A stretch of 43,985 bases of DNA from an uncultured archaeon (GCA_964458565.1 CAYWJO010000014.1:32256-76240); one strand, 5' to 3'. Numbered from the stretch's first letter, positions 4,955 through 38,088 are shown. A program made the numbers and translations. The notes: generated by a model not told the origin, from the letters alone.

Positions 4955-6856
4955 TCAATCCGGACTATATGATAATGAACTGACTAACTCAAGTGCTTTT
5001 TCTACTTGGGGTATCAAAGCTTTGATTTTATGCTTATTTGCAGTTTCGAGAGCTTGCTGTAATGCTTCAATCATCTTCTCATGCTCTGTTCCCCAATCTG
5101 ATGCATTATCGATATTGGAGAGGTCATTTAATTTCTTAGGAAGTATCTTCAGCATACTTTGTATAGCAGTCTGAGCCTCTTGAGGTTCCAAAATAACTTC
5201 ATCAATCTCGCTATCAGAAGCTGTAAGAATTCTATCAATCTGATTTAGAAGCTTTTGAAACTCCTCCAAAGATTGCTGAAGAATCTCAGTCACTTCCTCA
5301 TCTGTTTCAGAACCACTTATTCTTCTGGTAAGATCCTCGATTGTTGTTTGAAGGAATTGTTTTCTATCATCAAGATTTGTCCGTCGTCTTTCTAACCATC
5401 TCCATTCACTCATAATGCTACTAGATAGAGCATATGCCTCGTTGATTCGCTCCCTATACTTCTCAAATTCATCCTTGGTCGTTTGATATTCGGAATCAAG
5501 GGAATCACAGATTTCGCTAAGCTGATAACTCAATATGTTATCAGCCTGAGCCTCAGATAATACACGACCTTCTCGCAATGCTCTGGCAACTTCAGACCAG
5601 AGTTTTTCAATTTCACGTTCGTCTTGCTCAGCACGACCAGTAGTTTCTAGCTCAGTTTTGAGGTCAGATATCGATGATGCGAGTCCCTGAACTTCCTCTA
5701 TCTTAGATCGCAAAAGTGCTTTGCCAAGTCGCGAGTTTAGCTCTGTTGTCAGTTTTTCCCGTTCAGAAGGAACCTCGAGAAGAGTATGTCCATTATCAAT
5801 CAATTTTTGTAGGGCATTCTCATATTCCGTTACTGCTTTATGATATTCACCCGTTTTAAGAAATGAATCCCCTTTATTTTGAAGTTCAAGAATCATTTCA
5901 AGAATATCATACGGTGATGTACTTAACACACCTAATTCATATAGACCCTCTTTATCACTTGAGAGATCAAGCGCGTGACCTTCGAATTGAATCTGTATTG
6001 CTAGTACTCCGGTAGGTGATGCGACATAGATAAAATCATGATCGACGACAATCCAATCAATTCTAACATCGTCTAATAACACATACCCGATTATGGAACC
6101 ACGTTTTATGTCCCAGATAATGATATTCTCGGAATCATATGCTACAATCGCAAACAGACGATTTGCCCACAAAGTAACGATATTCCCAGTTTCGTTCGGG
6201 ATTAAATTCCTAATACTTGTCCATTCAAACCGATCCCATAAACGCACTTCCCCAGTGCTTAATCCTACAAGAATATATGATTCATTTCCGAATACCTTTA
6301 CACCCCGTTCTTTTGATGATAGTTTTATGATTTCAATTGGAGCTTTTCCAACTGAGAGCGACCAAACTTTTACATCGTCTTTCCTCGCCACCGTACAAAT
6401 GACCTCACCATCTCTCCATAGTGAGATTATATCTGTCTTATAGAGTTGCCATGAAGAAGTCTCATGGCTATCTTTCGTAATTGAGAGCAAACGACCATCC
6501 TTAGCACCAACATAAATGAAGTTATCATAAAGAATCGAAGTAACAGCTTGATAGCCCAATTCAAACCATCCTATCATTCCCCAAGTGCCCTTCTTCCATA
6601 CATAGACACGTTTTTCGCAAGTTGCATAGACTTGTGCATCATCAACTTGGACTCTAAGAGGGGAAGTAGTTGTTTCTCCTAATACTGCTTCAAGCTTCCA
6701 ATCGCGTTTCGACCAAACACGTACACGATTATCTCTACATCCTATATATACAAAATGTTCATCATGACAAAGATGGATGGCATCAGCTTCAAGCGTAGCA
6801 ACTTCTTCGTGTTTTAACTCCTGAACCTCATCCGGACTCCCAATTGAGTTACTCAT
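4955..6856 (-). CDS. WD40-like beta-propeller fused to a TPR/MIT-like helical bundle and coiled coil
   Basis: N-terminal repeats (YIGCRDNRVRVWS, YVGAKDGRL, VGLSTGEVRLWD, NIIIWD), then KGDSFLKTGEYHKAVTEYENALQKL and about 280 aa of heptad-rich helix. Confidence 0.75.
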   Translation of the reverse strand: MSNSIGSPDEVQELKHEEVATLEADAIHLCHDEHFVYIGCRDNRVRVWSKRDWKLEAVLGETTTSPLRVQVDDAQVYATCEKRVYVWKKGTWGMIGWFELGYQAVTSILYDNFIYVGAKDGRLLSITKDSHETSSWQLYKTDIISLWRDGEVICTVARKDDVKVWSLSVGKAPIEIIKLSSKERGVKVFGNESYILVGLSTGEVRLWDRFEWTSIRNLIPNETGNIVTLWANRLFAIVAYDSENIIIWDIKRGSIIGYVLLDDVRIDWIVVDHDFIYVASPTGVLAIQIQFEGHALDLSSDKEGLYELGVLSTSPYDILEMILELQNKGDSFLKTGEYHKAVTEYENALQKLIDNGHTLLEVPSEREKLTTELNSRLGKALLRSKIEEVQGLASSISDLKTELETTGRAEQDEREIEKLWSEVARALREGRVLSEAQADNILSYQLSEICDSLDSEYQTTKDEFEKYRERINEAYALSSSIMSEWRWLERRRTNLDDRKQFLQTTIEDLTRRISGSETDEEVTEILQQSLEEFQKLLNQIDRILTASDSEIDEVILEPQEAQTAIQSMLKILPKKLNDLSNIDNASDWGTEHEKMIEALQQALETANKHKIKALIPQVEKALELVSSLSYSPD

Positions 6857-7069
6857 GATTCGCGCCCATCCATAATTACTTCAGCAAAGGTTGTTAATTT
6901 GCTTTATGTGATTTTCGCAAACAGTAAGATTTGATAAAAAATCTTGTTAGAAACGTCTTTTTAAGGTAAAAAACTACCATTCGGACAGATTATTCCTTAA
7001 AAGGATATAATCAGAACAGACTTTAATACCATGAGATAATCTGCTTTGTATAGATAAGGAGGCCACCTA

Positions 7070-9757
7070 TTGGACAGTCATGAATGGAGACGCGAGATAG
7101 ACAAACTCGCAGAACTGAAAGGGATCCTAGTATCACTTAATCCAAAGCTTGATGAACAAACAAGTCGCCAGATGCGACAACTTTTGGATCTTTTCGCGAA
7201 AATAACCAAACTTGAGAGCGATATTGAGAGTTCTGGTTTTCTGAAGAAGAGAAAGATTCAGACTCAGTTCGAAAAGGCGTCTAGTGATTTTGAAGAGGAT
7301 TTTATGCGTTTAACACGGGATTTTGCTGAAACGATTAGGAAAGAACATAAAGAGGTCGCAAATGTACTACCACGTTTAGAATCAGTAAAACCACAACAAG
7401 TTAAGGCAATATCACAGCTTGGTTTTCCATCCATTAGCTCTGGTGATATTAGAGACCTCACTGCACTTCATGGCTTTGCAAAGGACTTCGCATCACAGTA
7501 CTTATCCCTCCATCAAGAATATGCAAGAGAAGTTAAGACAGCCTTGGATGAGAATAAAGGAACTGTAGAAACCTACGAAAAGCATGTGACAATTGATAGA
7601 GGGGAAGTAACTACAACTGTATCAAATGACGATGTCATTGCACTTCCGATGTCAGAACTTCATGCGATGATGGAGAAACTCAAAGCAGAGAAGACATACC
7701 TCGATGGTAGAAAGGATGAAGTGAGCCGCATGTTAGGAACATCACTAATGAGTGATGTCGAGGGTTTGCAAGCCTACGTCGAAACTGCTGCTAGATTGGG
7801 TCTTGACCTACCAATGGATTTCTCTCAGAAGTTACGAATTCTTGCACGAGATGCATCTAAAGCCACAAACCTGACAACACTTGTTAGTCTTGAAAGTCAA
7901 TTAGATGCCTCACGTCAACAGATGACTGATATGCTGCGTGATAGAATCATTAACATTAAGCATGAAGTAACCACAAAGATTGTTGATGGCGGAATCCCAA
8001 CAACAGCAGATGTGATACCTCCAGCTCCCACCGTAGGTGTAGAAGGTGTAGATATTGCAAGTCTGTTATCATCATATCAGACGATTGTTGAATGGAAAGG
8101 TCAGGTGAAGATCGCATTAAAAGGAGAGATTGAAGAAGCTCTCGAAGAGATTGAAAAAGCAACGGACAAACCCGAAGAGTCTGGTATCAAAGATGTTATA
8201 GATGTCAGAAAATTCATTGCCGATTCTAAAAAGGAATTGAAAGTTGCGGATATCGATGAAATGGTTAAGATTCATCTTAAAGTTAAATCAATGGCCGAGG
8301 AATACAAGAAACACATTACTGACTTAATTCGAGAGTACCTAGCGAGATTCAATGAATTAGCTACATCAGCAGATCGTGTTTTAGATTATGCGCAATTGAG
8401 TAAGAAAGCACCAAAAGTAGAAGAACTCGAAGGTGGCATTGTTTACTTATTACAGTCTCTTGACAACCTGCAACAAGCCGTCGAAAGTGGCGTTGCTACG
8501 TTTCGCGATGCTTGTCAACAAGAAATCGAAGCAATAATAGGAGACCTTCAAACAATCAAACCTGTTTATGCTGAAATCTTCATGCCCATTATTGTCGAGT
8601 TGGAGCAAGGAGCCCAAGATATTGCAAAATTAAATGATTTTTCTGAAATCCGTTCAGAGATGCGTACAATCAAGGAAACCATCCTTGTAAAAGCTCGAGA
8701 TGCTTTGGAAAATCTACGCTACAGACTCGGGGTAAAAATTAGACTTGCTGCTGCTAAACTCATGGGAGCGGGATTTGAGATACCGATTGAAGTCCAGGAA
8801 GCAATCTCTGAATTAAACAGTGTTGGAGTGGCCTCAGACAATGTATTTGGGCTACCAGCAATTGCTCGGAAAATGGTTGAAATCTATGAGAAAAAGATTA
8901 GCGATAATATTGTCCAGTCGCTCATGGTCCAAGTTACCGACTTAAAAAGCTCCTTTGACAGAGCAAAGAGTATAGGCGTAGATGTTGAAGCTGAGTTGAA
9001 AGTTCTATCTAAAATTGAGAAGACACCTCCTGAAGAACTCGAAAATGCAGCTGATGCTTTTGACCAGATTGCAGGTCTAACAACATCTCAGTCAGTGCAT
9101 AAAAAAGTCAGAGAGAGAGCTGATGAAGCATATAATCAGATTAAAAATGCCGTCGCAATCTTCGAAGAACAAGGCATGTCAGAATTTGTTGCGAGATTGA
9201 AAACTCTACTAGAACAGGTTCCAGCTCAATTAGAAGCTGGAGATAAACACGTCAATCAGGCTCTCGAAGTATGTCTAACTCTTGCTAACATTCAGGAAGA
9301 AATGTTAGGAATGATGAAAGAAATCGCATCAAAGAAGGGAGAAGAACATGATGCACAAATCAAGGAGACAAGCAAATACTACTCAACCATTGAGAGGGTA
9401 TTTGAGAAACATCCTGATGATTTTGATAAACTAATCTATCCCCTCAAGGAGCTAAAAAAGGAGGAAGAAGCACTACAGAGTGCCACAATCCTTAACGAGG
9501 CTATTGATCACTTCAACAGAATTTCTGATCTTCGTGAGGGATGGATAGAGAAAGCCGAGAAAATGGATGACTGGCATAAATCTCTAAGAATGTTCCTTAC
9601 AGGATTTAGTGCATCTGCAAGTGCAGATGAGCGAGATAAGTTCTTAGACGAGCAGATAAAGAAAATCAAAGAAACCTATAGCCGTGCGGATATCAGTTCA
9701 TACCTCTCGTGGGCTATCAAGGAACTCGCTCAGGCGATGGTTGAGAAAAGAGGATAA
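7070..9757 (+). CDS. Large all-alpha helical-repeat/coiled-coil protein of unknown function
   Basis: 895-aa ORF with a TTG start and AAGGAGG RBS at 7056-7062. E/K/L/A-rich, with no TM segment or Walker A motif seen. Confidence 0.8.
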   Translation: MDSHEWRREIDKLAELKGILVSLNPKLDEQTSRQMRQLLDLFAKITKLESDIESSGFLKKRKIQTQFEKASSDFEEDFMRLTRDFAETIRKEHKEVANVLPRLESVKPQQVKAISQLGFPSISSGDIRDLTALHGFAKDFASQYLSLHQEYAREVKTALDENKGTVETYEKHVTIDRGEVTTTVSNDDVIALPMSELHAMMEKLKAEKTYLDGRKDEVSRMLGTSLMSDVEGLQAYVETAARLGLDLPMDFSQKLRILARDASKATNLTTLVSLESQLDASRQQMTDMLRDRIINIKHEVTTKIVDGGIPTTADVIPPAPTVGVEGVDIASLLSSYQTIVEWKGQVKIALKGEIEEALEEIEKATDKPEESGIKDVIDVRKFIADSKKELKVADIDEMVKIHLKVKSMAEEYKKHITDLIREYLARFNELATSADRVLDYAQLSKKAPKVEELEGGIVYLLQSLDNLQQAVESGVATFRDACQQEIEAIIGDLQTIKPVYAEIFMPIIVELEQGAQDIAKLNDFSEIRSEMRTIKETILVKARDALENLRYRLGVKIRLAAAKLMGAGFEIPIEVQEAISELNSVGVASDNVFGLPAIARKMVEIYEKKISDNIVQSLMVQVTDLKSSFDRAKSIGVDVEAELKVLSKIEKTPPEELENAADAFDQIAGLTTSQSVHKKVRERADEAYNQIKNAVAIFEEQGMSEFVARLKTLLEQVPAQLEAGDKHVNQALEVCLTLANIQEEMLGMMKEIASKKGEEHDAQIKETSKYYSTIERVFEKHPDDFDKLIYPLKELKKEEEALQSATILNEAIDHFNRISDLREGWIEKAEKMDDWHKSLRMFLTGFSASASADERDKFLDEQIKKIKETYSRADISSYLSWAIKELAQAMVEKRG

Positions 9758-9775
9758 AACAAGGAGCAAAAAAAT

Positions 9776-11170
9776 ATGCAGAGATTTGGTGGAAAAACAA
9801 CGGAAGATGATACAACAAAAGCTGCAGAAGTCTTCGCAATTGGTATAGGAGAATGTGGGTCAAATATCGTAGGTTCATATCTGAAAGCAAGTTCAGATAA
9901 GAAGCTTCCATCACGAGTGAAGGGTTACCTCCTACTCAACACAGACCGAGCTGATCTTACAAAAGTCCGTCAGAAATATGATATACCTAAGGAACATACC
10001 ATGTTGTACGGTGACAGTGACATTGGTGTAGGTGGTAGGTTTATGGATGGATTCAATGCAATGATCGAATCCAAGGACATTATTTTCGATCAGTTAGCTG
10101 GACTTGGATTTGAAGGTGTATCAGGTTTCTGCATCTTTACTTCACTGGGAGGCGGTACAGGTTGTGGAGGTACACCTGCAATTATCGAGCTCTTGAAGCA
10201 ACGTTTTCAAGAGGAAGAAGGTCGAAGAATATTCGTCTATGTTATTGGTATACTGCCATTCGAGGGTCAATCCAGTGAAGCGCTTAACTCAATTTGGGCT
10301 GTATCTAAACTCCTTCGTGCGCAATTGCAGGAACGAGGTGCTGATCTCACTATCCTACTGAGTAACAGAACTATGCTGAAGCGGATACTCCAGTCTCGAA
10401 GTGATGAGAGTGTAGGATATTTACAGAGGGAACTTGAAGTTGACGTTGCAGACATTCATCAATTAGAGAAAATGGTGCCTTCAACTATAGATGAAGGTGG
10501 AGATCTTGAGAAACGGACCGAACAGGCTTTTGTTGAGCTAGTTAATCCCATGGCATTAGATGTCGTAGAAGCAATGCTATCACCTGGAGTTTATGAAAGC
10601 TCCAAGGATGTCTTTCCAACGACAGACTTAGCAGACTATGCTCGGAAACTAGACCCTGTAGTTGTTCCAGCACTTTATCCTGATATCGGTCTAATACCTG
10701 ATGCAGGAAGTATGCCTAACCAGCTAAGGGCCATGATAGATTATGCAGTACGGGAGTGCTCCTACGCAGACGTTGGAGAACAGCCAAACGCAGAAAGTGT
10801 GTACTATGTGTTTAGCGGACCACGTCATATATCTAAAGCTGAATATGGAATGCATCTAAAGGAAGCATTGGACAAGTTCATTGCTCCTGGAGCAGCCATT
10901 ACTCCATGCTACGTGCAATATCATGAACAGGACACACCATCAAACTTGCTTCTGCTTCTTGGATTACCCAAGATACCTGAACTTGTGCAAATCATAAATG
11001 AAGCCACTCAGCTTGTCAATTTGCACAGTGGTGCATCACCACTCAAACAGGGCTGGTTCATGCGTTCAAAAGGTACCACAAGGAAGGAGCTGGTCAGCGC
11101 TATCTCTGATTTCAGAGAATTATTCAGCTATTATTTGTCGCCCACCGATACACAGACTCCAATGGAGTGA
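9776..11170 (+). CDS. Divergent tubulin/FtsZ-superfamily GTPase (CetZ/tubulin-like, not canonical FtsZ)
   Basis: T1 GIGECGSNI, LNTDRADL, T3 GVGG, signature SLGGGTGCGG (GGGTGCGG at nt 10148-10171), ILPFEG, LSN and T7-like TTDLADY. Confidence 0.9.
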   Translation: MQRFGGKTTEDDTTKAAEVFAIGIGECGSNIVGSYLKASSDKKLPSRVKGYLLLNTDRADLTKVRQKYDIPKEHTMLYGDSDIGVGGRFMDGFNAMIESKDIIFDQLAGLGFEGVSGFCIFTSLGGGTGCGGTPAIIELLKQRFQEEEGRRIFVYVIGILPFEGQSSEALNSIWAVSKLLRAQLQERGADLTILLSNRTMLKRILQSRSDESVGYLQRELEVDVADIHQLEKMVPSTIDEGGDLEKRTEQAFVELVNPMALDVVEAMLSPGVYESSKDVFPTTDLADYARKLDPVVVPALYPDIGLIPDAGSMPNQLRAMIDYAVRECSYADVGEQPNAESVYYVFSGPRHISKAEYGMHLKEALDKFIAPGAAITPCYVQYHEQDTPSNLLLLLGLPKIPELVQIINEATQLVNLHSGASPLKQGWFMRSKGTTRKELVSAISDFRELFSYYLSPTDTQTPME

Positions 11171-11177
11171 GTACACT

Positions 11178-12236
11178 TTGAGTGAACCAATTGATATGAA
11201 CGAGTTAATTGACAGATTGCTACTGGTAGCAACACTCAATTCAACTCTGGTTCATTTCTTGCTGTCATCACAGATTGAGGGTCAGGTCGATCCAGATAGA
11301 GTAGACTCACTTACCCAAGGATTGAAACGTACTAGGCAATGGATGGAAAATGCGACGACTGCGGAAGGTATACCTGAATCAACAGCCAATATCATGGGAC
11401 TCATCGTGAAGCGGCTTTCTCAAATTGAGAGCCTTCTGCCAAAATTGTCCGTACGTGCTCAAACATCATCTACAGCCCCAACTGCTGAGATATTGTCATT
11501 GCTTGATGGAGGTCATAAAGCACCAACAAGAACTGATGTAGTGACAACGGAAACGACACATTCTGACTCAGGACTTGTATCGGTCAAAGGAGAAGAAGAA
11601 CAGGAACCTGAAGAACCCTACATAAAGACCGAGATAGAAGATGATGAATGGGGATATATTGGTCAGCAGAGACGACTAATAGACCAATATAGCAAGCGAT
11701 GTCATGTACTTCTCCCAACCTTCTGGTATGAAGTTCTACGAGAACTTCACAAGTACCAATCAAAGTCAACCTATATGGGAGATGTCATCGATGAACCATC
11801 CAAGACCGTCATGAGGGTAATCAAAGGATTACTCACTGAAGCTCCTGGTGCTAGATTGTTACAGGATCTTTCAAAACGAAGACCACAAGAGAGAGACCTA
11901 ATGGGTTCAGAGATTGAAAGAATCGAAAGAGCAGTAGCTAACTATTATCGCGGAGTTGAAGGTATACTAAAGGGTGAGAAACTTCGAGTGCAAGAAAAGA
12001 TAGATGAAGCATCTGCTACATTTGATGGGTTCGATTGGGGAGGTCCTGAGCTTGAGAAACGCATCATCAAGAGATTCAATCAGAGAGCAGAAGAAGCACT
12101 TCGCTCTGCTGAGTCGGACTCTGATGAAATACGTCAAGTTATTCTTGCTGAGGTATCTAAGCTACTTTGCAAGCTCCAGCTTGCAATCTTAGCTGAACCA
12201 CGTTTGAGAGAAATTCTGACTCAGATGAAACCTTGA
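11178..12236 (+). CDS. Hypothetical helical protein, third gene of the tubulin-like operon
   Basis: Likely start is TTG 11178 or ATG 11196, just after the GTPase stop. Two helical domains joined by a Thr/Ser/Glu-rich linker. Confidence 0.7.
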   Translation: MSEPIDMNELIDRLLLVATLNSTLVHFLLSSQIEGQVDPDRVDSLTQGLKRTRQWMENATTAEGIPESTANIMGLIVKRLSQIESLLPKLSVRAQTSSTAPTAEILSLLDGGHKAPTRTDVVTTETTHSDSGLVSVKGEEEQEPEEPYIKTEIEDDEWGYIGQQRRLIDQYSKRCHVLLPTFWYEVLRELHKYQSKSTYMGDVIDEPSKTVMRVIKGLLTEAPGARLLQDLSKRRPQERDLMGSEIERIERAVANYYRGVEGILKGEKLRVQEKIDEASATFDGFDWGGPELEKRIIKRFNQRAEEALRSAESDSDEIRQVILAEVSKLLCKLQLAILAEPRLREILTQMKP

Positions 12237-16407: not shown

Positions 16408-16956
16408 ATGATGGACGAAGAAAAAAAATATCGTGTTGAAGAAACTGGTGAAAGCGATAGAGATGAATCGATAAAAGGCTTCTTAGCTCCACTTCCTGAA
16501 TCAAAGACAACTCGTCGAAACCGCGGTAAACGTACGGTACCCATGACCAAACTATTTGGAGTTGAAATGAAAGAAACAACACGAGATTGGATTATTCTCG
16601 TTTTGATGCCAATGATTGCAGGACTTATCGATGCATCCATATATTCTTTGGTTGTTGTTGATGCTCTCCTAGACGACACGCTTTACTTGTTCATAATTCC
16701 GATGATTGCTGCTATTCCAATTGGACTGACTATTGCTTACGCAAGTAGGGCTCTACTAGGAGGAATCCTTACTGTATTATTCTTTGCCATATTTATGCTG
16801 ATATTTCTTGCATCGCCAGGATTCTTTGCAGCAGATTTAAGCCCATTTGATTATATGTTTGCTAGTGGAGTGTTTCTAGCAATCTATTCCTTGTTCATTA
16901 TATTTGCATCATTGCTTGGAACTCTTGTTGGAATTATAATAAGAGAGTTCTTTTAA
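16408..16956 (+). CDS. Small multi-pass membrane protein
   Basis: Charged N-terminus followed by about 4 TM helices. Confidence 0.7.
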   Translation: MMDEEKKYRVEETGESDRDESIKGFLAPLPESKTTRRNRGKRTVPMTKLFGVEMKETTRDWIILVLMPMIAGLIDASIYSLVVVDALLDDTLYLFIIPMIAAIPIGLTIAYASRALLGGILTVLFFAIFMLIFLASPGFFAADLSPFDYMFASGVFLAIYSLFIIFASLLGTLVGIIIREFF

Positions 16957-17056: not shown

Positions 17057-18028
17057 ATGCAGATGAACGAAGAAACGAAAATCCTGTATGAAGGAAAAAC
17101 CAAACGTATTCATTCAATCAGCAATGAATCAGATTACGTCTTAATTGAATTCAAAGATAGTATTCCGATAGAAGCAGGAATTTTAGAAGTTCAAGGGAGA
17201 GCAAAATTAGCGTGTGAAACATCTACCTTTCTCATGAAATTTTTAAAGCAGAAAGGAGTAGACACACACTTCGTTGAGAAACTTGAAGGTCCTAAAATAA
17301 AATGTCTGATGACAGAGGCATTTCCAACAAGGTTGGTTTGCAGAAATATTGCTACGCGAAAATTCGCAGACAGGGTTGGAATTGAGGAGAATCTTAGATT
17401 TGAAGACCCTATAATTGAGTTCTATCTTGAAAAAGACAACAAGATTGTAATGGTAAGTCAGGATGCTGTAAGAACTTTAACAGATTTATCCCCAGATGAA
17501 ATAACACTCCTAAAGTCTGTCGCTTCGTCAATCAACTATTATCTTAAGGAACTCTTTTTTCAAATTGATCTTGACCTCGCGGAAATTCGACTCAGGTTTG
17601 GGAGAACCCAAGCAGGACATTTGGTTTTAGCTGACGAAATAACTGGAGAAACAATGACGATTATTGAAAGAGCAGAAACAAAGAATTTACTATTTCCATG
17701 TGAACCGAAAACTGTTATTGATAATTATATGTACATTCTTGAGAAGATAGTTCAATCAGACTTCAAAAAAATTCCCACTCGATTAGAAACACTGTATGTT
17801 GAGGTGATGCCAAGAGCAGAAGTAAAAGACCCTAGTAGTCAAGCTGTTTTGCGAGCACTAAAAAAAGATGGAGTTGAGTTTATAGAAGATGGTAAGATGG
17901 GTAGAATCTTCTGTATGAAATTGAAAACTCCACTTACATCAGGAATATTATCTCAAATCAATGAAATGAGCATAGGTCTACTCTCAAATCCACTTTCGGA
18001 AACACATAAGCTGAGGATGCCAGAATGA
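17057..18028 (+). CDS. purC-purS: Degenerate PurC (SAICAR synthetase)-like domain fused to PurS
   Basis: PurC landmarks LYEGKTK, EFKD, THF, CRNIA and LADEI. C-terminal PurS motifs VKDP...AVLRAL...GR.F...LLSNPLSE. Catalytic motifs are altered (see findings). Confidence 0.85.
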   Translation: MQMNEETKILYEGKTKRIHSISNESDYVLIEFKDSIPIEAGILEVQGRAKLACETSTFLMKFLKQKGVDTHFVEKLEGPKIKCLMTEAFPTRLVCRNIATRKFADRVGIEENLRFEDPIIEFYLEKDNKIVMVSQDAVRTLTDLSPDEITLLKSVASSINYYLKELFFQIDLDLAEIRLRFGRTQAGHLVLADEITGETMTIIERAETKNLLFPCEPKTVIDNYMYILEKIVQSDFKKIPTRLETLYVEVMPRAEVKDPSSQAVLRALKKDGVEFIEDGKMGRIFCMKLKTPLTSGILSQINEMSIGLLSNPLSETHKLRMPE

Positions 18029-18723
18029 ATATTGCTGTCCTGAAATTTCCAGGTACCACATGCGATAAGGATGTTCAGAGAGCACTAAAATTGATTGATG
18101 GAGCAGAACCAGAAATCGTGCACAGTAAAAGCAAACCCGAAGTTCTGAAGGAGGCTAAAGGAATTATCATTCCTGGAGGTTACTCCTTTGGAGACTATGT
18201 ACGTCCTGGAGCTCTTGCCGCCAATTCAGAAATTATGGATGGCGTTATAGAGATGGCTGCAGCAGGACACCCTATACTAGGTATTAGTAATGGGTTTCAA
18301 ATGCTTACCGAAGTTGGATTACTACCAGGAACGCTCTTGAGAAATAATAACTGCAAATTCATTTGTAAATGGGTCTATCTCAGAGTATGCGAAGAGAGCA
18401 CACTCTTCACAGATTCACTTGCAGGACTTATAATCAGAATTCCAATTGCTCATGAATATGGCAACTTCTATTGTTCAGACCACACTCTGACAGCATTAAG
18501 AAATGCTGAAAGAATCCCATTTCGTTATTGTAATAGCAAAGGGGATCCCTTGATGGAGTTCAATCCCAACGGATCTATTGATAATATAGCGGGTGTTTTC
18601 AATGATAAAGGAAATATTCTAGGGATGATGCCACATCCGGAACGCGCATGCCGATCTCTACTTGGTTCGATCGATGGGTTGATTATTCTGGAGAATTTCG
18701 TGCGCGGTACTCAATCTGCATGA
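18025..18723 (+). CDS. purQ: PurQ-like class I glutamine amidotransferase with nucleophile Cys replaced by Ser
   Basis: FPGTTCD, PGGYSFGDY, GISNGFQ, NPNGS and GMMPHPER. ATGA overlap with the upstream gene. Confidence 0.9.
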   Translation: MNIAVLKFPGTTCDKDVQRALKLIDGAEPEIVHSKSKPEVLKEAKGIIIPGGYSFGDYVRPGALAANSEIMDGVIEMAAAGHPILGISNGFQMLTEVGLLPGTLLRNNNCKFICKWVYLRVCEESTLFTDSLAGLIIRIPIAHEYGNFYCSDHTLTALRNAERIPFRYCNSKGDPLMEFNPNGSIDNIAGVFNDKGNILGMMPHPERACRSLLGSIDGLIILENFVRGTQSA

Positions 18724-18734
18724 GGTGGAAATAG

Positions 18735-20879
18735 ATGCTCACCAAAGAAGAACTGGATCATGCAGCAAAGATTTTGGAACGACCTCCTAACCCTACAGAA
18801 CTTGCAATGCTCGAAGTATTATGGTCAGAATCTTGCAGTTATAAAAGTAGTAAGAGATGGTTCCATCTCTTCAATATGGAAGGAGAACGAGTGGTATCCA
18901 ATGCACTAGAAGGCGAGATTGGTCTTGTTGACATTGGTGATGAATTACTCCTAGGAGTAACTATTGAATCAAGAAATCATGCTGCAAATGCGGAGCCTTT
19001 TCATGGTGCATCAACAGGAATTGGTGAGATTATAAGAGATATTCTATCTCATGGTTGTAAACCAGTGGGTTTGATGAATTGTCTTCGTTTTGGTCCACTC
19101 GTGGATGAACACGAGGTATACAAATTAAAGGAAGTTGTTCGAGGATTATCATATTACGGTAACTCAGTGGGAATACCAACGATTGGTGGAGATACTGAGT
19201 TTGATATAAGTTTCAAAGGTAGATGTGTTGTTAATGTTGCATGTTTCGGTGTTGTAGAAGCAGATAGAGTAATGCGAAGTACTCCACTGACTCCAGGGCA
19301 TGAACTAATTATATTTGGTGCAGAAACAAGCCGCGATTTGACCATTCCGGGTACTGAAAAAGATATCCAAGGATTTGTTCAAACTGGAGATCCATTAACA
19401 AAGAAAACAATTCTTGATGCACTAGAAATAATTTTGGAGGAGAGGTTGCTTGAGGGACTACAAGATATTGGTAGCGGAGGTCTCGCATCTGCAGCAGGTC
19501 GAATGGTATCTCATGGAAATACAGGTATAGAAATCCATTTGGAGAAAGTTCCAATATCTGATACTTCTATGATTCCATTTGAGATTATTACCTCACGAGC
19601 GCAGGAGAGAATGCTCTGTATTGTGTCACCCGAAAAGCGAGAAAGGGTCTTGTCTGTTCTCAAGGAATTTGAAATTCAGGCATCTGTTATAGGACATGTA
19701 ACTGAAGATAGTAACTATACAGCATTTTTGAATGGAGAAATTGTTGTAAAGATGCCTCTAAAGCTGCTTGTTGAGGGATTCCCTGTTCCTAGCCGAATTG
19801 AAATTGAAGATACGCCAGTTGATCATCCAATAGATTGGGTTCCAGAAACGCTTGACCACCGTGTAATAATCAAGAATTTGATGCATTTGACAAACTTATG
19901 TGATAGAGAATGGATATCAAGTCAATTTGATCAACACATCTTGACAAGTACCGTGATTGACATTGGTGATAACGCAGGGGTCATTGAATTACCCAAGGGA
20001 AAATTACTCGCATTCTCAGCAGATTGTAATTCAAATTGGTGTCGCCTGGACCCGTGGACAGGGACTGCCAATTCTGCAGCTGAGTCATTGCGAAATCTGG
20101 TTGCCACCGGAGCTGAACCAATATTCATAGCTGATTGCTTAAATTTCGGAAATCCAGAACGACCTGAATCCTACGGGCAGTACATTGATGCATTTAGAGG
20201 ATTAGGACAGTTCTCTAGTGATTTTGAGATACCGATTGTTGGAGGCAGTGTATCTCTCTATAATGAAGAGAACATTGATGGAGAAATTAGAAGAATCAAT
20301 CCAACACCACAGATAATCATGGGAGGTCTTTTTACAGAAGGGAGAAAACCGACAAGGAGAAATTTAGTTACACCATGGGCGAATATTTTTCTCGTAGGAA
20401 AGACGCATAGAGAATTGAATGGAACTGATTTTCAGGAATTACAACTAGGAAGTCGTAAAGGACTACCTCCAAGATATCTACCGGGTGATGAACAACGATC
20501 TATGAGAGCGGTGTTGCAGGCTCATAAAGCAGGTATAATACGTTCATGCAACAATATAGGACGAGGCGGATTAGCAGCTGGATTAATCAAAATGATACTA
20601 CAAAGCGAGTATGGATTCACAATCACAGTTGATGATATCCCAGGTACAGCAAAGACGTTGCCAGAAATTCTCTATTCAGAAACACCAGCAAGGTATCTTA
20701 TAGAAGTCACTGAAAGTAATCAACCCCAATTCTTGGGAATAATGGATAATAATGATGCAAGTGTAGTTGAATTAGGTTTGACACAACAAGAAAAGATCGC
20801 AGAATTTGGAGAATTCTCTCTAAATATACAGGAAGTAGTGAAATCGTATCGTAGAGGACTTAGAGATTTAGTAGAGTAG
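18735..20879 (+). CDS. purL: Small-type PurL-like protein with altered active-site histidines
   Basis: WSESCSYKSS, IESRNH, IIRDI, YGNSVGIPTIGG, QERM, DCLNFGNPE and GGSVSLYNE. Confidence 0.9.
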   Translation: MLTKEELDHAAKILERPPNPTELAMLEVLWSESCSYKSSKRWFHLFNMEGERVVSNALEGEIGLVDIGDELLLGVTIESRNHAANAEPFHGASTGIGEIIRDILSHGCKPVGLMNCLRFGPLVDEHEVYKLKEVVRGLSYYGNSVGIPTIGGDTEFDISFKGRCVVNVACFGVVEADRVMRSTPLTPGHELIIFGAETSRDLTIPGTEKDIQGFVQTGDPLTKKTILDALEIILEERLLEGLQDIGSGGLASAAGRMVSHGNTGIEIHLEKVPISDTSMIPFEIITSRAQERMLCIVSPEKRERVLSVLKEFEIQASVIGHVTEDSNYTAFLNGEIVVKMPLKLLVEGFPVPSRIEIEDTPVDHPIDWVPETLDHRVIIKNLMHLTNLCDREWISSQFDQHILTSTVIDIGDNAGVIELPKGKLLAFSADCNSNWCRLDPWTGTANSAAESLRNLVATGAEPIFIADCLNFGNPERPESYGQYIDAFRGLGQFSSDFEIPIVGGSVSLYNEENIDGEIRRINPTPQIIMGGLFTEGRKPTRRNLVTPWANIFLVGKTHRELNGTDFQELQLGSRKGLPPRYLPGDEQRSMRAVLQAHKAGIIRSCNNIGRGGLAAGLIKMILQSEYGFTITVDDIPGTAKTLPEILYSETPARYLIEVTESNQPQFLGIMDNNDASVVELGLTQQEKIAEFGEFSLNIQEVVKSYRRGLRDLVE

Positions 20880-20984: not shown

Positions 20985-22742
20985 TTGAGTGGTGTTCCTA
21001 TCACTTTCACTCGAATATTTGGAGAAGAAAAAACAATTCAGATTGATGAAGTATCATCAAGTCTAATGATACACAATCAACACATTGTTGAACTTGATTT
21101 ATCACCTCTTGTTAAACTCAATATAATCCGCCTAAGTCTCTACAATAATAAGATAAAGATGATTGACCTGCGACCTCTGACTGAGTGTAAAAGTATAGCC
21201 TTTATTGATTTGAGTATGAACCAACTTGAACAAATAAACCTGAAACCCATTTCAGAACTTCAAAATCTACAGGAAGTACTCTTTGAACACAATCATCTAG
21301 AAGCAATCGATTTGAACCCGTTCTCAAATCTTATGATTATAAGAAACCTTAGTTTCGCATTTAATAGGATTGGCGAAATTGATACAAGTCCATTAAAAAA
21401 GTTGACCTCTCTCGTGGTTGTTGAGCTTAATAACAATGAGATTCATAGTATTGATTTGAATGGTTTTACGTCATTAAAAAATCTTAGAGTTCTCAAGCTA
21501 AACGATAACCAGCTACTTGAGATTGATCTTACACCTCTCAATGAATTTGAAAATATCCTGAGTATCACATTTAGTAATAACAAGCTTAAAAGATTGAATC
21601 TAGGCCCACTGAATAATAGTCATAGAATTCGTGAGATTGATCTCAGGGGTAACCAACTAAAAACCGTCGAGCTTCCAGCCATTACAGGTTTACATAGATT
21701 GGACATTTCAGGAAATCAATTGGAAGAAATTGATCTGAAACCATTGAGAGCGTCCAAACAAATGAGATTGATTGATTTAAGTTCAAACAGCATCTCTGGA
21801 GTTGATTTAAGATATCTCTCAGCAATGAAGGAGTTGAAACAGGTTCTCCTGAATTTGAATAAACTTACTGATATTGATGCAAGCCACCTGTCAGAAATTA
21901 TATCATTAACAAAATTAGATTTCTCCAATAATGAATTGGAAAGAGTCATTCTCCCCAGGCAGACGTCAATCTCCGAATTAAATCTCCACGATAACAAAAT
22001 CCAGAGAATCGATCTACAGCCACTAGCAGGAAGTAGCAAACTTGCTACAATCAATCTGTCACAGAACCAGCTCGTTGAGATCGACCTTTCTCCTCTGTCT
22101 ACGTGTTCCAACCTAGAAGTCTTGGACCTGAGTAGTAATAGGCTTTCTCAGATAGATCTTGATCCACTGAAGAATTGCTCTGATTTGAGAATTATCAATC
22201 TCAAATCTAATAGATTGAAAACTATCGACTTGGCACCACTTTGTTCATGTAATGAACTACTACAACTCAATCTGCGAAATCCAATAGAGCGATTAGATAT
22301 CACTGCGTTGATTCCATGTTTAAGGCTTCGAATTGATGATGGTCTAATTATACGAGAGGGACAGAAAACCGAAACCAATCTGGTTTCTCTATTTGAGCCA
22401 ACCAAATCGAATAAAGCTCTCTTTAAGTTAAAGGAACGAATCGAAGTTCTTGACTTTGAAGAAGCATTGAATGAGAGAAAATGGGATTCAGTCTATCCTA
22501 TCATAAAAGCTATATTGAGTGGGCTTCCTCAAGAGGAATCACTACTGATATCAAATTCAATGCTAACAAAACTTGGTTTGCTGGACTATTCTATTATCTC
22601 ATCTAATGGCAAAGAAACAACTGGTTTAGAAACAAAAGAAATAAAATTTGACAGATTTATTGACATCCTAGCGAAGCTTCCGTCAGATGGGGATTATATT
22701 GATATTATGCGATTTACTCGCGATAGGCTCAATGAACAATAA
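20985..22742 (+). CDS. Leucine-rich repeat protein (internalin-like 22-aa repeats)
   Basis: About 18 repeats of LxxLxLxxNxLxxIDLxPL; no signal peptide seen. Confidence 0.92.
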   Translation: MSGVPITFTRIFGEEKTIQIDEVSSSLMIHNQHIVELDLSPLVKLNIIRLSLYNNKIKMIDLRPLTECKSIAFIDLSMNQLEQINLKPISELQNLQEVLFEHNHLEAIDLNPFSNLMIIRNLSFAFNRIGEIDTSPLKKLTSLVVVELNNNEIHSIDLNGFTSLKNLRVLKLNDNQLLEIDLTPLNEFENILSITFSNNKLKRLNLGPLNNSHRIREIDLRGNQLKTVELPAITGLHRLDISGNQLEEIDLKPLRASKQMRLIDLSSNSISGVDLRYLSAMKELKQVLLNLNKLTDIDASHLSEIISLTKLDFSNNELERVILPRQTSISELNLHDNKIQRIDLQPLAGSSKLATINLSQNQLVEIDLSPLSTCSNLEVLDLSSNRLSQIDLDPLKNCSDLRIINLKSNRLKTIDLAPLCSCNELLQLNLRNPIERLDITALIPCLRLRIDDGLIIREGQKTETNLVSLFEPTKSNKALFKLKERIEVLDFEEALNERKWDSVYPIIKAILSGLPQEESLLISNSMLTKLGLLDYSIISSNGKETTGLETKEIKFDRFIDILAKLPSDGDYIDIMRFTRDRLNEQ

Positions 22743-32086: not shown

Positions 32087-34234
32087 ATGACATCTATACA
32101 ATCAAAAGGATGTTTACTTCTTGTTTCTTTGCTAGTACTCACTAGTGTTTCAATTGCACCATTGGCAGTAGAAAATTCAAGTTTATTCCTCAAATCAAGT
32201 AGGGACTATATATCTCAAGATCAGGTTTTTCAGATATACCATGGAGGCACAGTGGAGTCCATACGTATTGATGAATTTGATAACTTAGAGGATATTCTAA
32301 CAGCTATGGAGAATGGAGAAGTAGATCTTTTTGGTCAGCGTTTAGATTATTCAAATCATTCTGATATTGAAGGATATGACAACATCGAAGCACTCTGGGC
32401 ACCTGACAATACAATCTGTATGCTAGCAGTCAACAGCAAGAATCAACCATTGGATAATACCTACCTGAGACGGGCATTGGCTTATGCTATTGATAAGAAT
32501 CAATCAATACCTAGTGAATTGTCAGATTATGTGGATGTATTAGATTTTGCATTGCCTTTGAATAATCAATATTCACTTGAAAGTGAAGAAGGAGGAGCCT
32601 ATTATTATGCAGATTATTCTACCGCAATAACCCAGTTAGAGAAAGCAGGTATGCTAGATGTCGATGAAGATTCGATGGTGGAGGGAAATGATGGAAGCGA
32701 AGTCTGTTTGAATATCTGGTACCCCTCAGACAGAAATGGTTTTGATTTCATTGCTTCTCAGATATCATCTAACCTACTTGCCATTGGATTAAATAATACC
32801 GTTGTTTCAATGCCTGAGGCTAATATTACTGCAGAGCTCTTCTATCACAACAACACATACGATTTAGCAATATACAATCAAGAACTTCCACCATATGGTT
32901 TGAATTGGGCTGCAACCACATTTGCTAAGTCAATGAGGGGTGTACCTGGAGAAAATGTAGCGAATATTGATAATAGCATATTTACAACTCTTGCTGCCAC
33001 CTATTATGACGAAATCGAACATGACAATATCATCAATCTTGGAATCCAAGCTTTAAGAAATGTAAAATCATTATGTCCTGTGATCCCCCTCTTTGCGTAT
33101 CGGTGGTTATCGATATACTCCAATCTAAACTTCGAGGGATGGGTTGATGATGAAAATGGGGGTGCAATTAGCGTCTGGAATCCTGTATCCATCACACCAA
33201 ACGCACCTTCTAATAATGAATTAGTTGTTGGAGTCTTACCTGAATATTTTGATGAATTCTATACTTCACTCAACATGTTCAAATCAAATATACCAATTGA
33301 CTACAACTGGGCATCAGGTCACTGGTTTAATCCATATCGACTAGTCTACGATTCCCCCATCGAAACCGCTCCAAGTGGAGCAGCTGTTCCGAGAGAAGCT
33401 ACATCGTGGGAGATTCTATATCTTGGTCAAATACCTGACATAACATTTACTCAACAAAGAGTTCGATTTTACTGTGACTCAAATGCAAACTGGACTGATG
33501 GAGAGCAGTTCGATGCTCAGGATTACCGATTCACCTTCGAATACTATGCTGAAAACAATCTTACAACTTCATACGGAATTATAGGTAGCGTAAAAATAAC
33601 TGGAGATTACCGAGCAGGTATTACTCTGAATTCCAAATACTTGTTCAATTATCGAGAGATTGGTGCCTTGCCAATTATTCCGGAACATATTTGGTTCGGA
33701 AAAAATGCAAGGACATGGGAACCAACCGTTCAGGAAGCTATAGGATCAGGTCCTTTTGTTGTTGAATCATACGTAGCTGGATCTTCTCTAGTCCTGATAC
33801 GTAATGAGATTTACTATCCTGTTGTAGACACTGAGCCACCTGTGTTTCAAAACATTGAGATTAATCCAACGAATCCAATTCCTGCAGAAAGTCTAGTTAT
33901 TAGAATTTACATCACTGATCGAAGCATCATATCAAATGTCACACTTGTATATTCTCATCAGGTTGGGAATATCAACTTCACAGAAACACGAAGGATGAGC
34001 CAATCTGCAATTGGCTATATTGCATCAATTCCAGCAAGAGTTACCGCAGACAAGGTATTCTTTCAGATTCATGCAACTGATATATGGGGAAATTCAGATA
34101 TCGTGTACGAGGATTTCTATACCGTTGAGGGTCTAACTAGTGAAGTAGATTTACTTCCCGCTGTGCTTTTGGTTGGCAGCATCGGTGTGATTGTTCTCCT
34201 TATTACTGGATTTATAATTAAACGGAAATCGTAA
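32087..34234 (+). CDS. Family 5 (OppA/DppA-like) solute-binding protein, circularly permuted, with Ig-like domain and C-terminal TM anchor
   Basis: LRRALAYAIDK and PVIPLF precede WTDGEQFDAQDYRFTF and GSGPFVVESY; then a DTEPP beta domain, TM and KRKS. Confidence 0.8.
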   Translation: MTSIQSKGCLLLVSLLVLTSVSIAPLAVENSSLFLKSSRDYISQDQVFQIYHGGTVESIRIDEFDNLEDILTAMENGEVDLFGQRLDYSNHSDIEGYDNIEALWAPDNTICMLAVNSKNQPLDNTYLRRALAYAIDKNQSIPSELSDYVDVLDFALPLNNQYSLESEEGGAYYYADYSTAITQLEKAGMLDVDEDSMVEGNDGSEVCLNIWYPSDRNGFDFIASQISSNLLAIGLNNTVVSMPEANITAELFYHNNTYDLAIYNQELPPYGLNWAATTFAKSMRGVPGENVANIDNSIFTTLAATYYDEIEHDNIINLGIQALRNVKSLCPVIPLFAYRWLSIYSNLNFEGWVDDENGGAISVWNPVSITPNAPSNNELVVGVLPEYFDEFYTSLNMFKSNIPIDYNWASGHWFNPYRLVYDSPIETAPSGAAVPREATSWEILYLGQIPDITFTQQRVRFYCDSNANWTDGEQFDAQDYRFTFEYYAENNLTTSYGIIGSVKITGDYRAGITLNSKYLFNYREIGALPIIPEHIWFGKNARTWEPTVQEAIGSGPFVVESYVAGSSLVLIRNEIYYPVVDTEPPVFQNIEINPTNPIPAESLVIRIYITDRSIISNVTLVYSHQVGNINFTETRRMSQSAIGYIASIPARVTADKVFFQIHATDIWGNSDIVYEDFYTVEGLTSEVDLLPAVLLVGSIGVIVLLITGFIIKRKS

Positions 34235-35820: not shown

Positions 35821-38088
35821 TTATTCTCTCTGAATCACAGATACTGCAATAAAACTCAAACCACCAGTTGTTGAATGAGTTGCGAAACTGCTAGTCCATG
35901 AAGGCATAGCTGGTGCATCACCTGCATCGAGGATGGTTTGCCACGCTTCATCTGTAAGACGGTTACTCATCGGTTGATGGAATTCATAGTAAGAGAAGAT
36001 TCCCCCTCTTGCAATAATAACTCTAGGAGTTCCTTCAACGTAGACCTGAACTGCAACGTAGATTACCATTTGATTGCCAACGGCTTCTTCAAGTACGGTT
36101 TCAGAGTTAGGATCAGTGTGGACATCAGCAATGACTGCCATTCGTTTATCAGCATCTGATGTGAATTCTTCTGCTTCAGAGGGAATTGATGCAATACCAT
36201 CAAGAACTTCACCACTGTGGTCTATGATAGAGATTTCAGTACTATTGAGAGGTGTACCTGCAAGTTCTTTGATCGAAACATCCTTCAGAGTTAGCAAAAA
36301 GGAAAGCAATGAGTACAATCTACTATTGATGGCTTCTGAAAGGAGAGAACGAACTCCTAAGCCTGATATCATCATCCTGCATAGGCTAGCAAGACGGGCA
36401 TATAGTCGAGGCATTGGTTCAACATACCCAACGACATCTTCAGGGATTGATGTTTCTCTGAATGTGTATGACTGTTTTGCATATAGAATAGTATCATGTC
36501 GCAGTTCGGTCCAAGAAGCTAAAGCAGTCATCAATTGTTTATCAACCCAAGCTTCACTCTGCATGAACAATGGATATCCCACTCCAGGAGCCTCTAAGAG
36601 AGGTTGCAATGAATACAACCATAACCAATAGAGATTCTGAGTCCAATCCGAATCAGTAAGGTTGCCTATGTAGTTCCAAAGCTTCTGCATCTGTCCGACA
36701 TAATTGACGTACCATTTCTGATCGTCAAGCAATTCCCAAGCCCTGTCTGATCCAAAAGCAGCCATAACATCTAGACCCTTAGGCATCAATCTTCTAGCAC
36801 CTTGAGTGCCAACATAAACATAAACGAGCTGTCCTAGTATGTAGCTGTCTGGAACATATCTCTGTCCCATAAATCTCAAACCCTTTGTCTGATTCAATGA
36901 TTCATAATCATCCAGAGGTGAACTTAGAATCAGAGGGTCTCTTAATGCCATAGCTTCTTCTATGAATATATTCAACAACGAGTCGTCATTCAAATCTTCC
37001 AAGCTTGGATTGGGACCGTAGGTTTGACTGATTAGGTCGAGATATTCTGTCGGAAGAAGATCATCCGCTGCTCCAACAAAGAAGACTGTTGGTTGATAGA
37101 TAGCATCCCATATATCATATCCAGTTGTACCAGACGGAAATCCCGGAATCTCATCCAAGAGTGCAAGTGTAATCAAAATTGCTTGCGCAGTTTCATTCCT
37201 ACCACGCTCATTTGGTACATCAGGTAAATCCGGTTTAAGTCTAAACATAAGACGTCCATACCACATCATTGTCTTGAAGAATTTCTTTAGCTGGTCACTT
37301 CGGGTATAGTGACCTCTGGGAACGTACTGACTGAAATCTTCTTCATAACCCTGGAACCAGTTGAAACTGATGCCTTCATGTTCAGCTATAAGATCTAAAA
37401 CTTTGAGAACTTCATTCTCAACCTCAGGAAGGAGAACTGTTTCATTATCCAAGAGCATCAAAGCTGTTGAGAAGAACATCATGTTTCTCAATGCTGCGTC
37501 TTTCCACCGACCTTCAGCTGCATTGAGATACTGAGCATAGGTCGAGTCGAGCATGGAGGTGGACAGGTTTCCTAAAAGGTCCCAGAAGGACCACACTTCT
37601 GCTTCCCGAAGAGCTAGATCGTACAATATGTGAAATGCATGAAGGACTGAATCAGAACTCACATACGAAGGAATTCCGTAATCGAAATTTTCAATCAAAA
37701 TATCATGGATTTGTTTATACTCAGCTTGTTCAGTTGCTACGAATCCATTTGATTCAATCAGACTCCGTTCGGTTGAAGAGAGAGTTGGAAATTGATATAG
37801 ATTGGCGATATTAGCTAGACCTGCTTCGATCGAATACTCAGGGGTATTCGCTTCGAAATTCTCATCATAGGGGATATAGTCTGCAAACTCCGTAGAGATT
37901 GAACCATTAATCGTGTACATTAAAGAAGTCGGAACACCTGGCCCTGCGGGATTGGGATTCCAATTCATCGTTCCAAAGTATCCAAGAGAAACTACAAGAC
38001 TAACAGCCAACAGGCTTGAGATCACTCCGCCAGAGAGAATTTTTCGTCTTGTTTGATTATCTATCGTTCTAATCAACACGGCAATCAC
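35821..38088 (-). CDS. DUF3160 domain-containing protein
   Basis: NGFV, DSVLHAFH, EDFSQYVPRGHYT, MMWYGR, RFMGQRY, ASWTELRHDTILYAKQS, IADVHT and RLTDEAWQ. Confidence 0.9.
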   Translation of the reverse strand: MIAVLIRTIDNQTRRKILSGGVISSLLAVSLVVSLGYFGTMNWNPNPAGPGVPTSLMYTINGSISTEFADYIPYDENFEANTPEYSIEAGLANIANLYQFPTLSSTERSLIESNGFVATEQAEYKQIHDILIENFDYGIPSYVSSDSVLHAFHILYDLALREAEVWSFWDLLGNLSTSMLDSTYAQYLNAAEGRWKDAALRNMMFFSTALMLLDNETVLLPEVENEVLKVLDLIAEHEGISFNWFQGYEEDFSQYVPRGHYTRSDQLKKFFKTMMWYGRLMFRLKPDLPDVPNERGRNETAQAILITLALLDEIPGFPSGTTGYDIWDAIYQPTVFFVGAADDLLPTEYLDLISQTYGPNPSLEDLNDDSLLNIFIEEAMALRDPLILSSPLDDYESLNQTKGLRFMGQRYVPDSYILGQLVYVYVGTQGARRLMPKGLDVMAAFGSDRAWELLDDQKWYVNYVGQMQKLWNYIGNLTDSDWTQNLYWLWLYSLQPLLEAPGVGYPLFMQSEAWVDKQLMTALASWTELRHDTILYAKQSYTFRETSIPEDVVGYVEPMPRLYARLASLCRMMISGLGVRSLLSEAINSRLYSLLSFLLTLKDVSIKELAGTPLNSTEISIIDHSGEVLDGIASIPSEAEEFTSDADKRMAVIADVHTDPNSETVLEEAVGNQMVIYVAVQVYVEGTPRVIIARGGIFSYYEFHQPMSNRLTDEAWQTILDAGDAPAMPSWTSSFATHSTTGGLSFIAVSVIQRE

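Follow-up and report, generated by a model that had tools for sequence, protein, structure and literature searches.

Formylglycinamidine ribonucleotide (FGAM) synthase is a textbook enzyme of central metabolism and is universally conserved. The small type, with structures from Thermotoga maritima (3D54 and 2HS0/2HS4) and Thermus thermophilus (3VIU), is a complex of PurL, PurQ and PurS. In canonical Candidatus Thorarchaeota (Asgard group), these genes are part of a supercluster (purF, purP, purP, purC~purS, purQ, purL, purE~purM, purD, where the tilde marks a fusion) that also encodes PurC, which makes succinylaminoimidazole carboxamide ribonucleotide (SAICAR). Here we describe a purC~purS, purQ and purL cluster from an uncultured archaeon whose enzyme domains have lost canonical catalytic residues, while strong purifying selection acts on the genes. 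The cluster lies in a stretch of 43,985 nucleotides, which we call the window (GCA_964458565.1 CAYWJO010000014.1:32256-76240, on our contig C14); positions are counted from its first letter. The genome (3.73 Mb in 93 contigs) is 93% complete, and its nearest protein relatives are Thorarchaeota.

To our knowledge, the only precedents are pseudoenzymes of herpesviruses that derive from the FGAM synthase PFAS, and the moonlighting of human PFAS as a protein deamidase. The gammaherpesvirus proteins vGAT/vFGARAT are PFAS homologs that lack the catalytic triad, cannot support the synthesis of purines, and serve to evade host immunity (PMC7605207). By analogy, these proteins (ORF75, BNRF1; TIGR01739) would be the nearest functional counterpart of the window complex, with the same kind of evolutionary outcome. 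However, they are viral, single-chain proteins of the large PurL type that act on host immunity factors, whereas the window case is cellular, archaeal, and made of three genes. A first-pass annotation of the window had stated that it knew of no description of such a system. For archaea, our searches of the literature on purine biosynthesis in Thorarchaeota or other Asgard archaea and on archaeal PurL pseudoenzymes likewise found none, but the viral pseudoenzymes are a known analog.

The window cluster has the folds, the domain order and the gene coupling of the small-type FGAM synthase. All three genes are on the + strand, and none of the open reading frames (ORFs) has an internal stop. The first gene (17057..18028, 323 amino acids) is a fusion of an eroded PurC-like domain (17057-17701, about residues 1-215) and a PurS domain (17792-18025, about residues 246-323), as seen from matches to PF01259 and PF02700 and from motif alignment to canonical fusions. 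The purQ-like gene (18025..18723, 232 amino acids, aligned to 3D54 chain D) encodes a glutaminase fold without the cysteine nucleophile. The purL-like gene (18735..20879, 714 amino acids, aligned to 3VIU and 2HS0) has a remodelled synthetase site and a well-conserved C-terminal half. The start codon of purQ overlaps the stop codon of purC~purS (ATGA at 18025-18028), and purQ and purL are separated by an 11-nucleotide spacer (ggtggaaatag, 18724..18734) whose GGTGG resembles a ribosome-binding element and may act as one. As in the canonical supercluster, the genes are in the same order beside a flavin mononucleotide (FMN) dehydrogenase and orf182 (16408..16956, +, 182 amino acids, no match in Pfam), which lies directly upstream of purC~purS. 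In contrast to the supercluster, the flanking pur genes are deleted. The identity to canonical orthologs is 33-37% for PurC~PurS, 52-61% for PurQ and 53-59% for PurL, versus 66-87% for neighboring genes.

Family profiles still recognize most of these proteins. PurQ and PurL score above the cut-offs of their equivalog families (277.5 versus 177.8 bits for TIGR01737, and 636.2 versus 525.75 bits for TIGR01736), although PurL is slightly below the cut-off of NF002290 (644.8 versus 648) and is not a member of the herpesvirus family TIGR01739 (39 versus 716.1 bits). Among solved structures, PurL matches 3VIU with E = 2e-101 and PurQ matches 3D54_D with E = 4.5e-47. In the fusion protein, the PurS domain (residues 247-319) passes the gathering threshold of PF02700 (39.5 versus 22.2 bits). 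Its PurC domain matches PF01259 (SAICAR_synt) with 117 bits and PurCs in the PDB with E-values down to 1e-28, but the protein falls below the cut-off for the PurC equivalog TIGR00081 (83.7 versus 189.9 bits).

Catalytic residues of PurQ, PurL and PurC

We read the catalytic positions of PurQ and PurL from HMMER alignments to solved structures. In PurQ, Ser88 (codon 18286..18288, in GISNGFQ) takes the place of the catalytic cysteine (C86 in T. maritima). This breaks the Cys-His-Glu triad, of which His204 and Glu206 (in HPER) are kept. In a survey of 65 archaea, the cysteine and the glutamate of PurQ were fully conserved in the species that make purines (PMC3261824). The cysteine is absent from 36 of the 120 nearest homologs of the window's PurQ, which have Ser (19), Gly (13), Asn (3) or Ala (1) instead. 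We also considered that PurQ might have been retained as a Ser-His-Glu hydrolase. As a general function this is unlikely: four relatives have lost the histidine of the triad (it is Gln in L054 and L087, Tyr in L088, and Phe in L089), and other clades have Gly, Ala or Asn in place of the nucleophile.

PurL has lost both active-site histidines, as judged by alignments to structures and to homologs. H32 of T. maritima PurL corresponds to S33 (WSESCSYKSS, 18822..18851), and H72 (Salmonella H296, human H311) corresponds to R80 (ESRNHAANA, 18966..18992), where the PSQ that follows has become AAN. Mutations of H32 and H72 have reportedly shown that both are important in T. maritima. Furthermore, what remains of the catalytic C-loop (GAETSRD/LTIPG, 19317..19352) is nine residues shorter than the canonical GRDGIAGVSFAS, and in an alignment of 120 homologs the conserved GGGG is GSGG in the window's PurL. 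The second histidine gates the synthetase site (PMC7124931, PMC13013826). The C-loop caps the site for formylglycinamide ribonucleotide (FGAR), and small deletions within its Gly-rich stretch abolish FGAM synthesis by Salmonella PurL (PMC7124931). Of 114 near-full-length PurL homologs from Thorarchaeota, 92 keep both histidines. The other 22, which form five subclades, lack one or both, and we will call these PurLs and subclades dead.

The replacements in PurL exceed what chance would give. We selected 300 columns with at least 95% conservation among 91 canonical PurLs from Thorarchaeota. The window's PurL deviates at 54 of these columns, while four canonical controls deviate at 2-11. In a second count, with 321 such columns, the median for canonical PurLs was 3 changes and the 95th percentile was 13. 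The erosion clusters in the N-terminal half, where the synthetase site lies, and the C-terminal half stays conserved: among columns with at least 90% conservation in canonical PurLs, 64-76% are retained in residues 61-345 and 88-94% are retained in residues 431-714.

The replacement residues, in turn, are conserved within a dead clade. WSERRSYK and ESNNHP occur in every one of the 14 members of one clade (with R33, R34 and N80 in 14/14), and both members of the window's clade have R80. Across the dead subclades these positions differ, with S/F, N, R or E/Q in place of the first histidine and R, N or Y in place of the second. The window's PurL keeps E78, N81, H82, D102 (in GEIIRD), D153 (in GGD) and D244 (in QDIGSGG), while the most eroded subclade also lacks the residues that align to E70 and D94 of T. 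maritima (it has RAYN and VIGN). Two changes are common to nearly all of the dead PurLs: A110P in 20/22 (19062-19064 in the window) and Y398F in 21/22 (19926-19928). Either the dead clades inherited these from a common ancestor, or the changes arose in parallel. We also considered the auxiliary nucleotide site of PurL as a conserved feature of the dead clades. We placed its putative ligands, including E450, by motif spacing. As a shared feature the site was not established, as the E450 position is Leu in most of one clade.

We compared the PurC domain to eight canonical fusions of the Thorarchaeota type and to PurCs from the PDB. Its fold is recognizable as that of SAICAR synthetase (2GQR from E. 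coli, 1KUT from T. maritima), and the N-terminal GK(T)K motif is kept. However, of the key residues, among them R94, S100, D175, E179 and R199 as contacts to ADP and CAIR, only R94 (E. coli numbering) is kept, and the others are replaced: S100 → K102, D175 → E176, K177 → R178, E179 → R180, R199 → T201, and R215 → P214. Three of these lie in EIRLRFG (17582..17602), which replaces the canonical DFKLEFG, and R199 → T201 lies in LADEITGETMTII (17627..17665), which replaces the canonical ADEISGDTMRVW. The other motifs have changed as well (TAGDG.K → SIPIEAG, GKG.LAC → GRAKLAC, P.EVVCRN → PTRLVCRN, AAGS → ATRK, ADEISGDTMR.W → ADEITGETMTII, and DKD.FR → KNLLFP). The numbering was mapped by motif onto the E. 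coli sequence, and it agrees with the residue numbers in the survey of 65 archaea. In that survey, R94, S100, D175, E179 and R199 were fully conserved in purine-making species (PMC3261824).

PurS is not catalytic, and its DP and LLSNP..E motifs are retained. The first-pass annotation had described three full-length, tightly coupled ORFs (with the ATGA overlap and the 11-nucleotide gap), loss of canonical catalytic residues from every enzyme domain, and persistence of the motifs of PurS. The junctions read as it described, the motifs are present, and the alignments to structures and homologs bear out the replacements in PurQ, PurL and PurC.

Purine pathway, selection and predicted complex

The first-pass annotation had also proposed that a canonical paralog was encoded elsewhere in the genome. 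This turned out to be wrong: searches of the 93%-complete genome with TIGR01736, TIGR01737 and PF01259 found no second purC, purQ or purL. Besides the window's copies, there were only two weak matches, to other proteins of the PurM superfamily. Furthermore, we did not find purF, purD, purM, purE, purH or purP in this genome, so this archaeon is apparently auxotrophic for purines. (purB is present; its product also serves in the conversion of inosine monophosphate to adenosine monophosphate.) Among 24 relatives from the same family that we searched, 16 have the full set of pur genes. In those full-pathway relatives that we examined, purF is upstream and purE~purM and purD are downstream of purC~purS-purQ-purL, beside the same FMN dehydrogenase and orf182. 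The window locus is contiguous and has no pur genes besides these three, so the absence of the flanking pur genes from the locus is not an assembly gap. Since our searches of the genome turned up no purF, purD, purM or purE, the window complex, in contrast to the small-type FGAM synthase, would have no supply of substrate and no use for the product.

The closest sister copy is in L054, a 4.2-kb contig from ENA, which has the same three genes with 61%, 68% and 70% identity. L054 shares Ser in place of the PurQ nucleophile, R80 and AANA in PurL, the loop deletion, GSGG, and the changed motifs of PurC. Between the window and L054, nonsynonymous substitutions per site (dN) amount to 0.30 in the PurC domain, 0.17 in PurS, 0.24 in PurQ and 0.21 in PurL, while the synonymous rate (dS) is around 3 or saturated (only the N-terminal half of PurL gave a finite value, 3.07). 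Because of this saturation, we estimated dN/dS from less diverged pairs within related dead clades. For L055 versus L090, dN/dS was 0.07 for PurQ and 0.08-0.11 for PurL, compared to 0.015-0.09 for five neighboring genes. For L087 versus L091, it was 0.12-0.14 for PurC~PurS, 0.07 for PurQ and 0.07 for PurL, compared to 0.11-0.20 for the neighbors. Today, the two halves of PurL are equally constrained (dN/dS of about 0.08-0.10).

Thus, the three ORFs evolve under strong purifying selection, like the neighboring housekeeping genes. The substitutions are common to L054 rather than private to one strain, and the ratios in related dead clades (0.07-0.14) are far from 1, which together rule out early pseudogenization. 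That dN is far below dS also upholds the first-pass annotation's idea of selection for a role without canonical catalysis. On sequence grounds, the genes would be classed as encoding pseudoenzymes: the catalytic residues are absent and the coding sequence is under purifying selection.

Structure prediction for PurQ with PurL gave a score of 0.90, versus 0.00 for the best of 3 controls. Such a score was attained for 58 of 80 solved complexes and for 2 of 110 mismatched pairs. At least 95% of the contacts are the same between prediction runs, and the predicted local distance difference test (pLDDT) for the partner is at least 91. The predicted interface may reflect no more than likeness to the solved complex from T. 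maritima (3D54). On the PurL side it includes SSQFDQH (19917..19937), in which every one of the 120 aligned PurLs, including the dead ones, has Q397, D399 and Q400. In dead clades, conservation at the positions of the predicted interface exceeds that of random sets of positions (30 and 13 of 2,000 random sets reached the observed value). The Y398F change, which is seen in nearly all of the dead PurLs, also falls in the predicted interface.

A graded series of loci across Thorarchaeota

In all five dead subclades, purQ adjoins purL within the same synteny: tubulin, a gene of unknown function, a coenzyme A (CoA) ligase, the FMN dehydrogenase, orf182, the pur genes, and a deacetylase. In most of the loci that we compared, a conserved orf182 (36-43% identity) immediately precedes the pur genes or the scar left by their deletion. 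By contrast, the only dead subclades that keep purC~purS are the window's clade and its sister (L087/L091). PurS was not found in the genomes that have only purQ-purL. One of these is a single contig of 2.58 Mb (CP070658.1), which also lacks purM, purD and purS.

The loci can be arranged in a graded series. G008 and G009 have the full cluster. L086 (GCA_011364905.1 RDNZ01000014.1, 6259-12166) has two adjacent purP genes, purC~purS, a purQ with Ser in place of Cys, and a purL that keeps both histidines but has changed at the positions of E70 (to D) and D94 (to N) of T. maritima; its genome lacks purM and purD. G020 has a near-canonical purC~purS-purQ-purL without other pur genes. The window genome, L054, L087 and L091 have the eroded form of these three genes, and G002, G017, L055, L088, L089 and L090 have an eroded purQ-purL only. 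Finally, G005, G003 and G010 (L092, L093 and L094) have lost the entire pur block: orf182 lies about 60-140 bp from the deacetylase gene, and the flanking synteny is intact. Along the series, the number of changes at columns of PurL that are conserved in canonical sequences climbs through 5, 29, 43 and 63-74 to 92.

The locus of G020 (L046, G020:C27:17000-33000, with the genes at about 6744-10578) encodes a PurQ with the cysteine and a PurL with both histidines. Its PurL has just 5 changes at the 321 conserved columns, one of which is GRDG → GRYG. We did not find purF, purD, purM or purE in the genome of G020, or at this locus. G005, which belongs to the same genus, has deleted the whole block. 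The state of G020 reflects either a very recent loss of the pathway or a use for active enzymes outside of it.

The number of origins of the dead state differs between trees. A FastTree analysis groups all 22 dead PurLs together with one canonical sequence, while a quick tree from IQ-TREE splits them in two, which requires two origins; an approximately unbiased (AU) test did not reject a single clade (p = 0.144). In the IQ-TREE tree, erosion of the L086 type sits separately, inside a canonical clade. A species tree from two genes was not resolved at depth.

The surroundings of the pur genes vary. In the window, a leucine-rich-repeat protein of 585 amino acids (20985-22742, +) is encoded between purL and the deacetylase gene, with no match in 12 related loci that we compared. 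Outside of those 12 loci, L087 and L091 have an unannotated gene for 624-627 amino acids between purL and the deacetylase gene. In several dead-type loci, a DUF3795 gene lies just upstream of purQ or purC~purS on the opposite strand (L055 8674-9132, L087 1107-1568, L088 6262-6696, and L090 8654-9133); it is absent from the window, and we saw none in canonical loci. Farther upstream, the window encodes a tubulin/FtsZ-like GTPase (9776-11170) with flanking genes of unknown function (7070-12236). This trio precedes the CoA ligase gene in related loci, and at 86-87% identity the tubulin is the most conserved gene of the neighborhood. Elsewhere, the window encodes a DUF3160 protein of 755 amino acids (35821-38088, -, 617 bits) and a protein of 715 amino acids (32087-34234, +) whose match to SBP_bac_5 begins only at residue 438.

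Explanations for the retained genes

We propose that the window encodes a selectively kept but catalytically disabled PurS/PurQ/PurL complex, with a fused PurC, that has a non-canonical role in a thorarchaeote that lacks de novo purine synthesis. We think that this is probable, if well short of certain. PurQ and PurL, together with the PurS domain in this organism, probably still assemble, because purQ and purL are always retained together, Q397, D399 and Q400 are invariant, the interface is conserved, and a complex is predicted. The disabled complex would make neither FGAM nor SAICAR. Instead, PurQ and PurL would act as a pseudoenzyme: a non-catalytic module for ligand binding, regulation or scaffolding. 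An adenine nucleotide may sit in its C-terminal pseudo-repeat, which is conserved, and the former FGAR/ATP pocket, which is enriched in arginine, may hold an anionic ligand. This role was probably already a second function of the canonical complex that outlived the pathway, because several lineages of Thorarchaeota kept purQ-purL after the pathway was lost.

Several observations weigh against our proposal. The genes are dispensable in some backgrounds, as three related genera have deleted them completely. Most of the dead subclades lack purC~purS. G020 retains near-canonical genes without the rest of the pathway, so genes can be retained without being eroded. The Leu at the E450 position in most of one dead clade makes a shared auxiliary nucleotide site doubtful. 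And the conservation of the replacement residues, along with the equal constraint on the N-terminal half of PurL, fits a new catalytic or ligand-binding site just as well.

Such a new site in the rebuilt pocket is the main rival to our proposal. In its fullest form, PurL would turn over a new anionic substrate in its remodelled pocket, be it through another ATP-dependent reaction or as an ATPase or kinase, with PurQ as a non-catalytic subunit. This would account for the persistence of several Mg/ATP-type acidic residues in the window's PurL (among E78 through D244), the gain of arginines that are conserved within clades, the constraint on both halves of PurL, and the A110P and Y398F changes that the dead PurLs have in common. 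However, we consider such an enzyme rather unlikely, since the dead subclades have different residues at both of the former histidine positions, no new catalytic motif is evident across them, the loop that would cap a substrate is deleted, and the most eroded subclade lacks the residues that align to Mg/ATP ligands (E70 and D94 of T. maritima). A broader version, which we hold as a tentative possibility, is that PurQ-PurL has a second function that is independent of catalysis and older than the loss of purine synthesis, and that in lineages like that of the window the rebuilt FGAR/ATP pocket (Arg for His, C-loop removed, new residues conserved) is a new site for either ligand binding or catalysis.

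We also considered that the genes might be functionless relics of the lost pathway that are open by chance or because they decay slowly. The graded loss from full cluster to nothing, the continuum of changes in PurL, and the three genera that lack the genes are what slow decay would produce. But dS between intact copies ranges from about 1 to above 3, and over such divergence 3.8 kb of neutral sequence would acquire stop codons or frameshifts. Given also that dN/dS equals that of neighboring housekeeping genes and that sister lineages share the same eroded state, a relic seems very improbable. Even less credible is that the complex is still canonical and makes FGAM and SAICAR with unusual residues (for instance, with an ammonia-dependent PurL that needs no working glutaminase), with the missing steps supplied by unrecognized enzymes or by cross-feeding. 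Small PurL on its own can reportedly use ammonia in vitro, the equivalog profiles of NCBIfam still accept PurL and PurQ, and G020 keeps a near-canonical set without other pur genes. However, an ammonia-dependent PurL would still lack both histidines and the Gly-rich C-loop, whose deletion abolishes FGAM synthesis (PMC7124931). Most of the substrate and ATP contacts of PurC are replaced as well, six other genes of the pathway were not found, and the triad histidine of PurQ is also broken in four sister or related lineages.

What is new in the window is the form with an eroded PurC~PurS and no canonical copy, along with the graded series at one locus and the measurements of selection. That FGAM synthase was disabled and yet is under housekeeping-level selection in several Asgard lineages unable to make purines implies that it has an uncharacterized second job. 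In the meantime, automatic annotation of these genes as purL, purQ and purC would falsely credit such archaea with steps of purine biosynthesis. The series of states at one locus, which runs from the full cluster to its complete absence, amounts to a natural experiment on the path from enzyme to pseudoenzyme. And if the rebuilt pocket is indeed a new site, then these proteins would form a hitherto unrecognized class, by function, of the PurM superfamily, one whose obligatory partner is a dead glutaminase.

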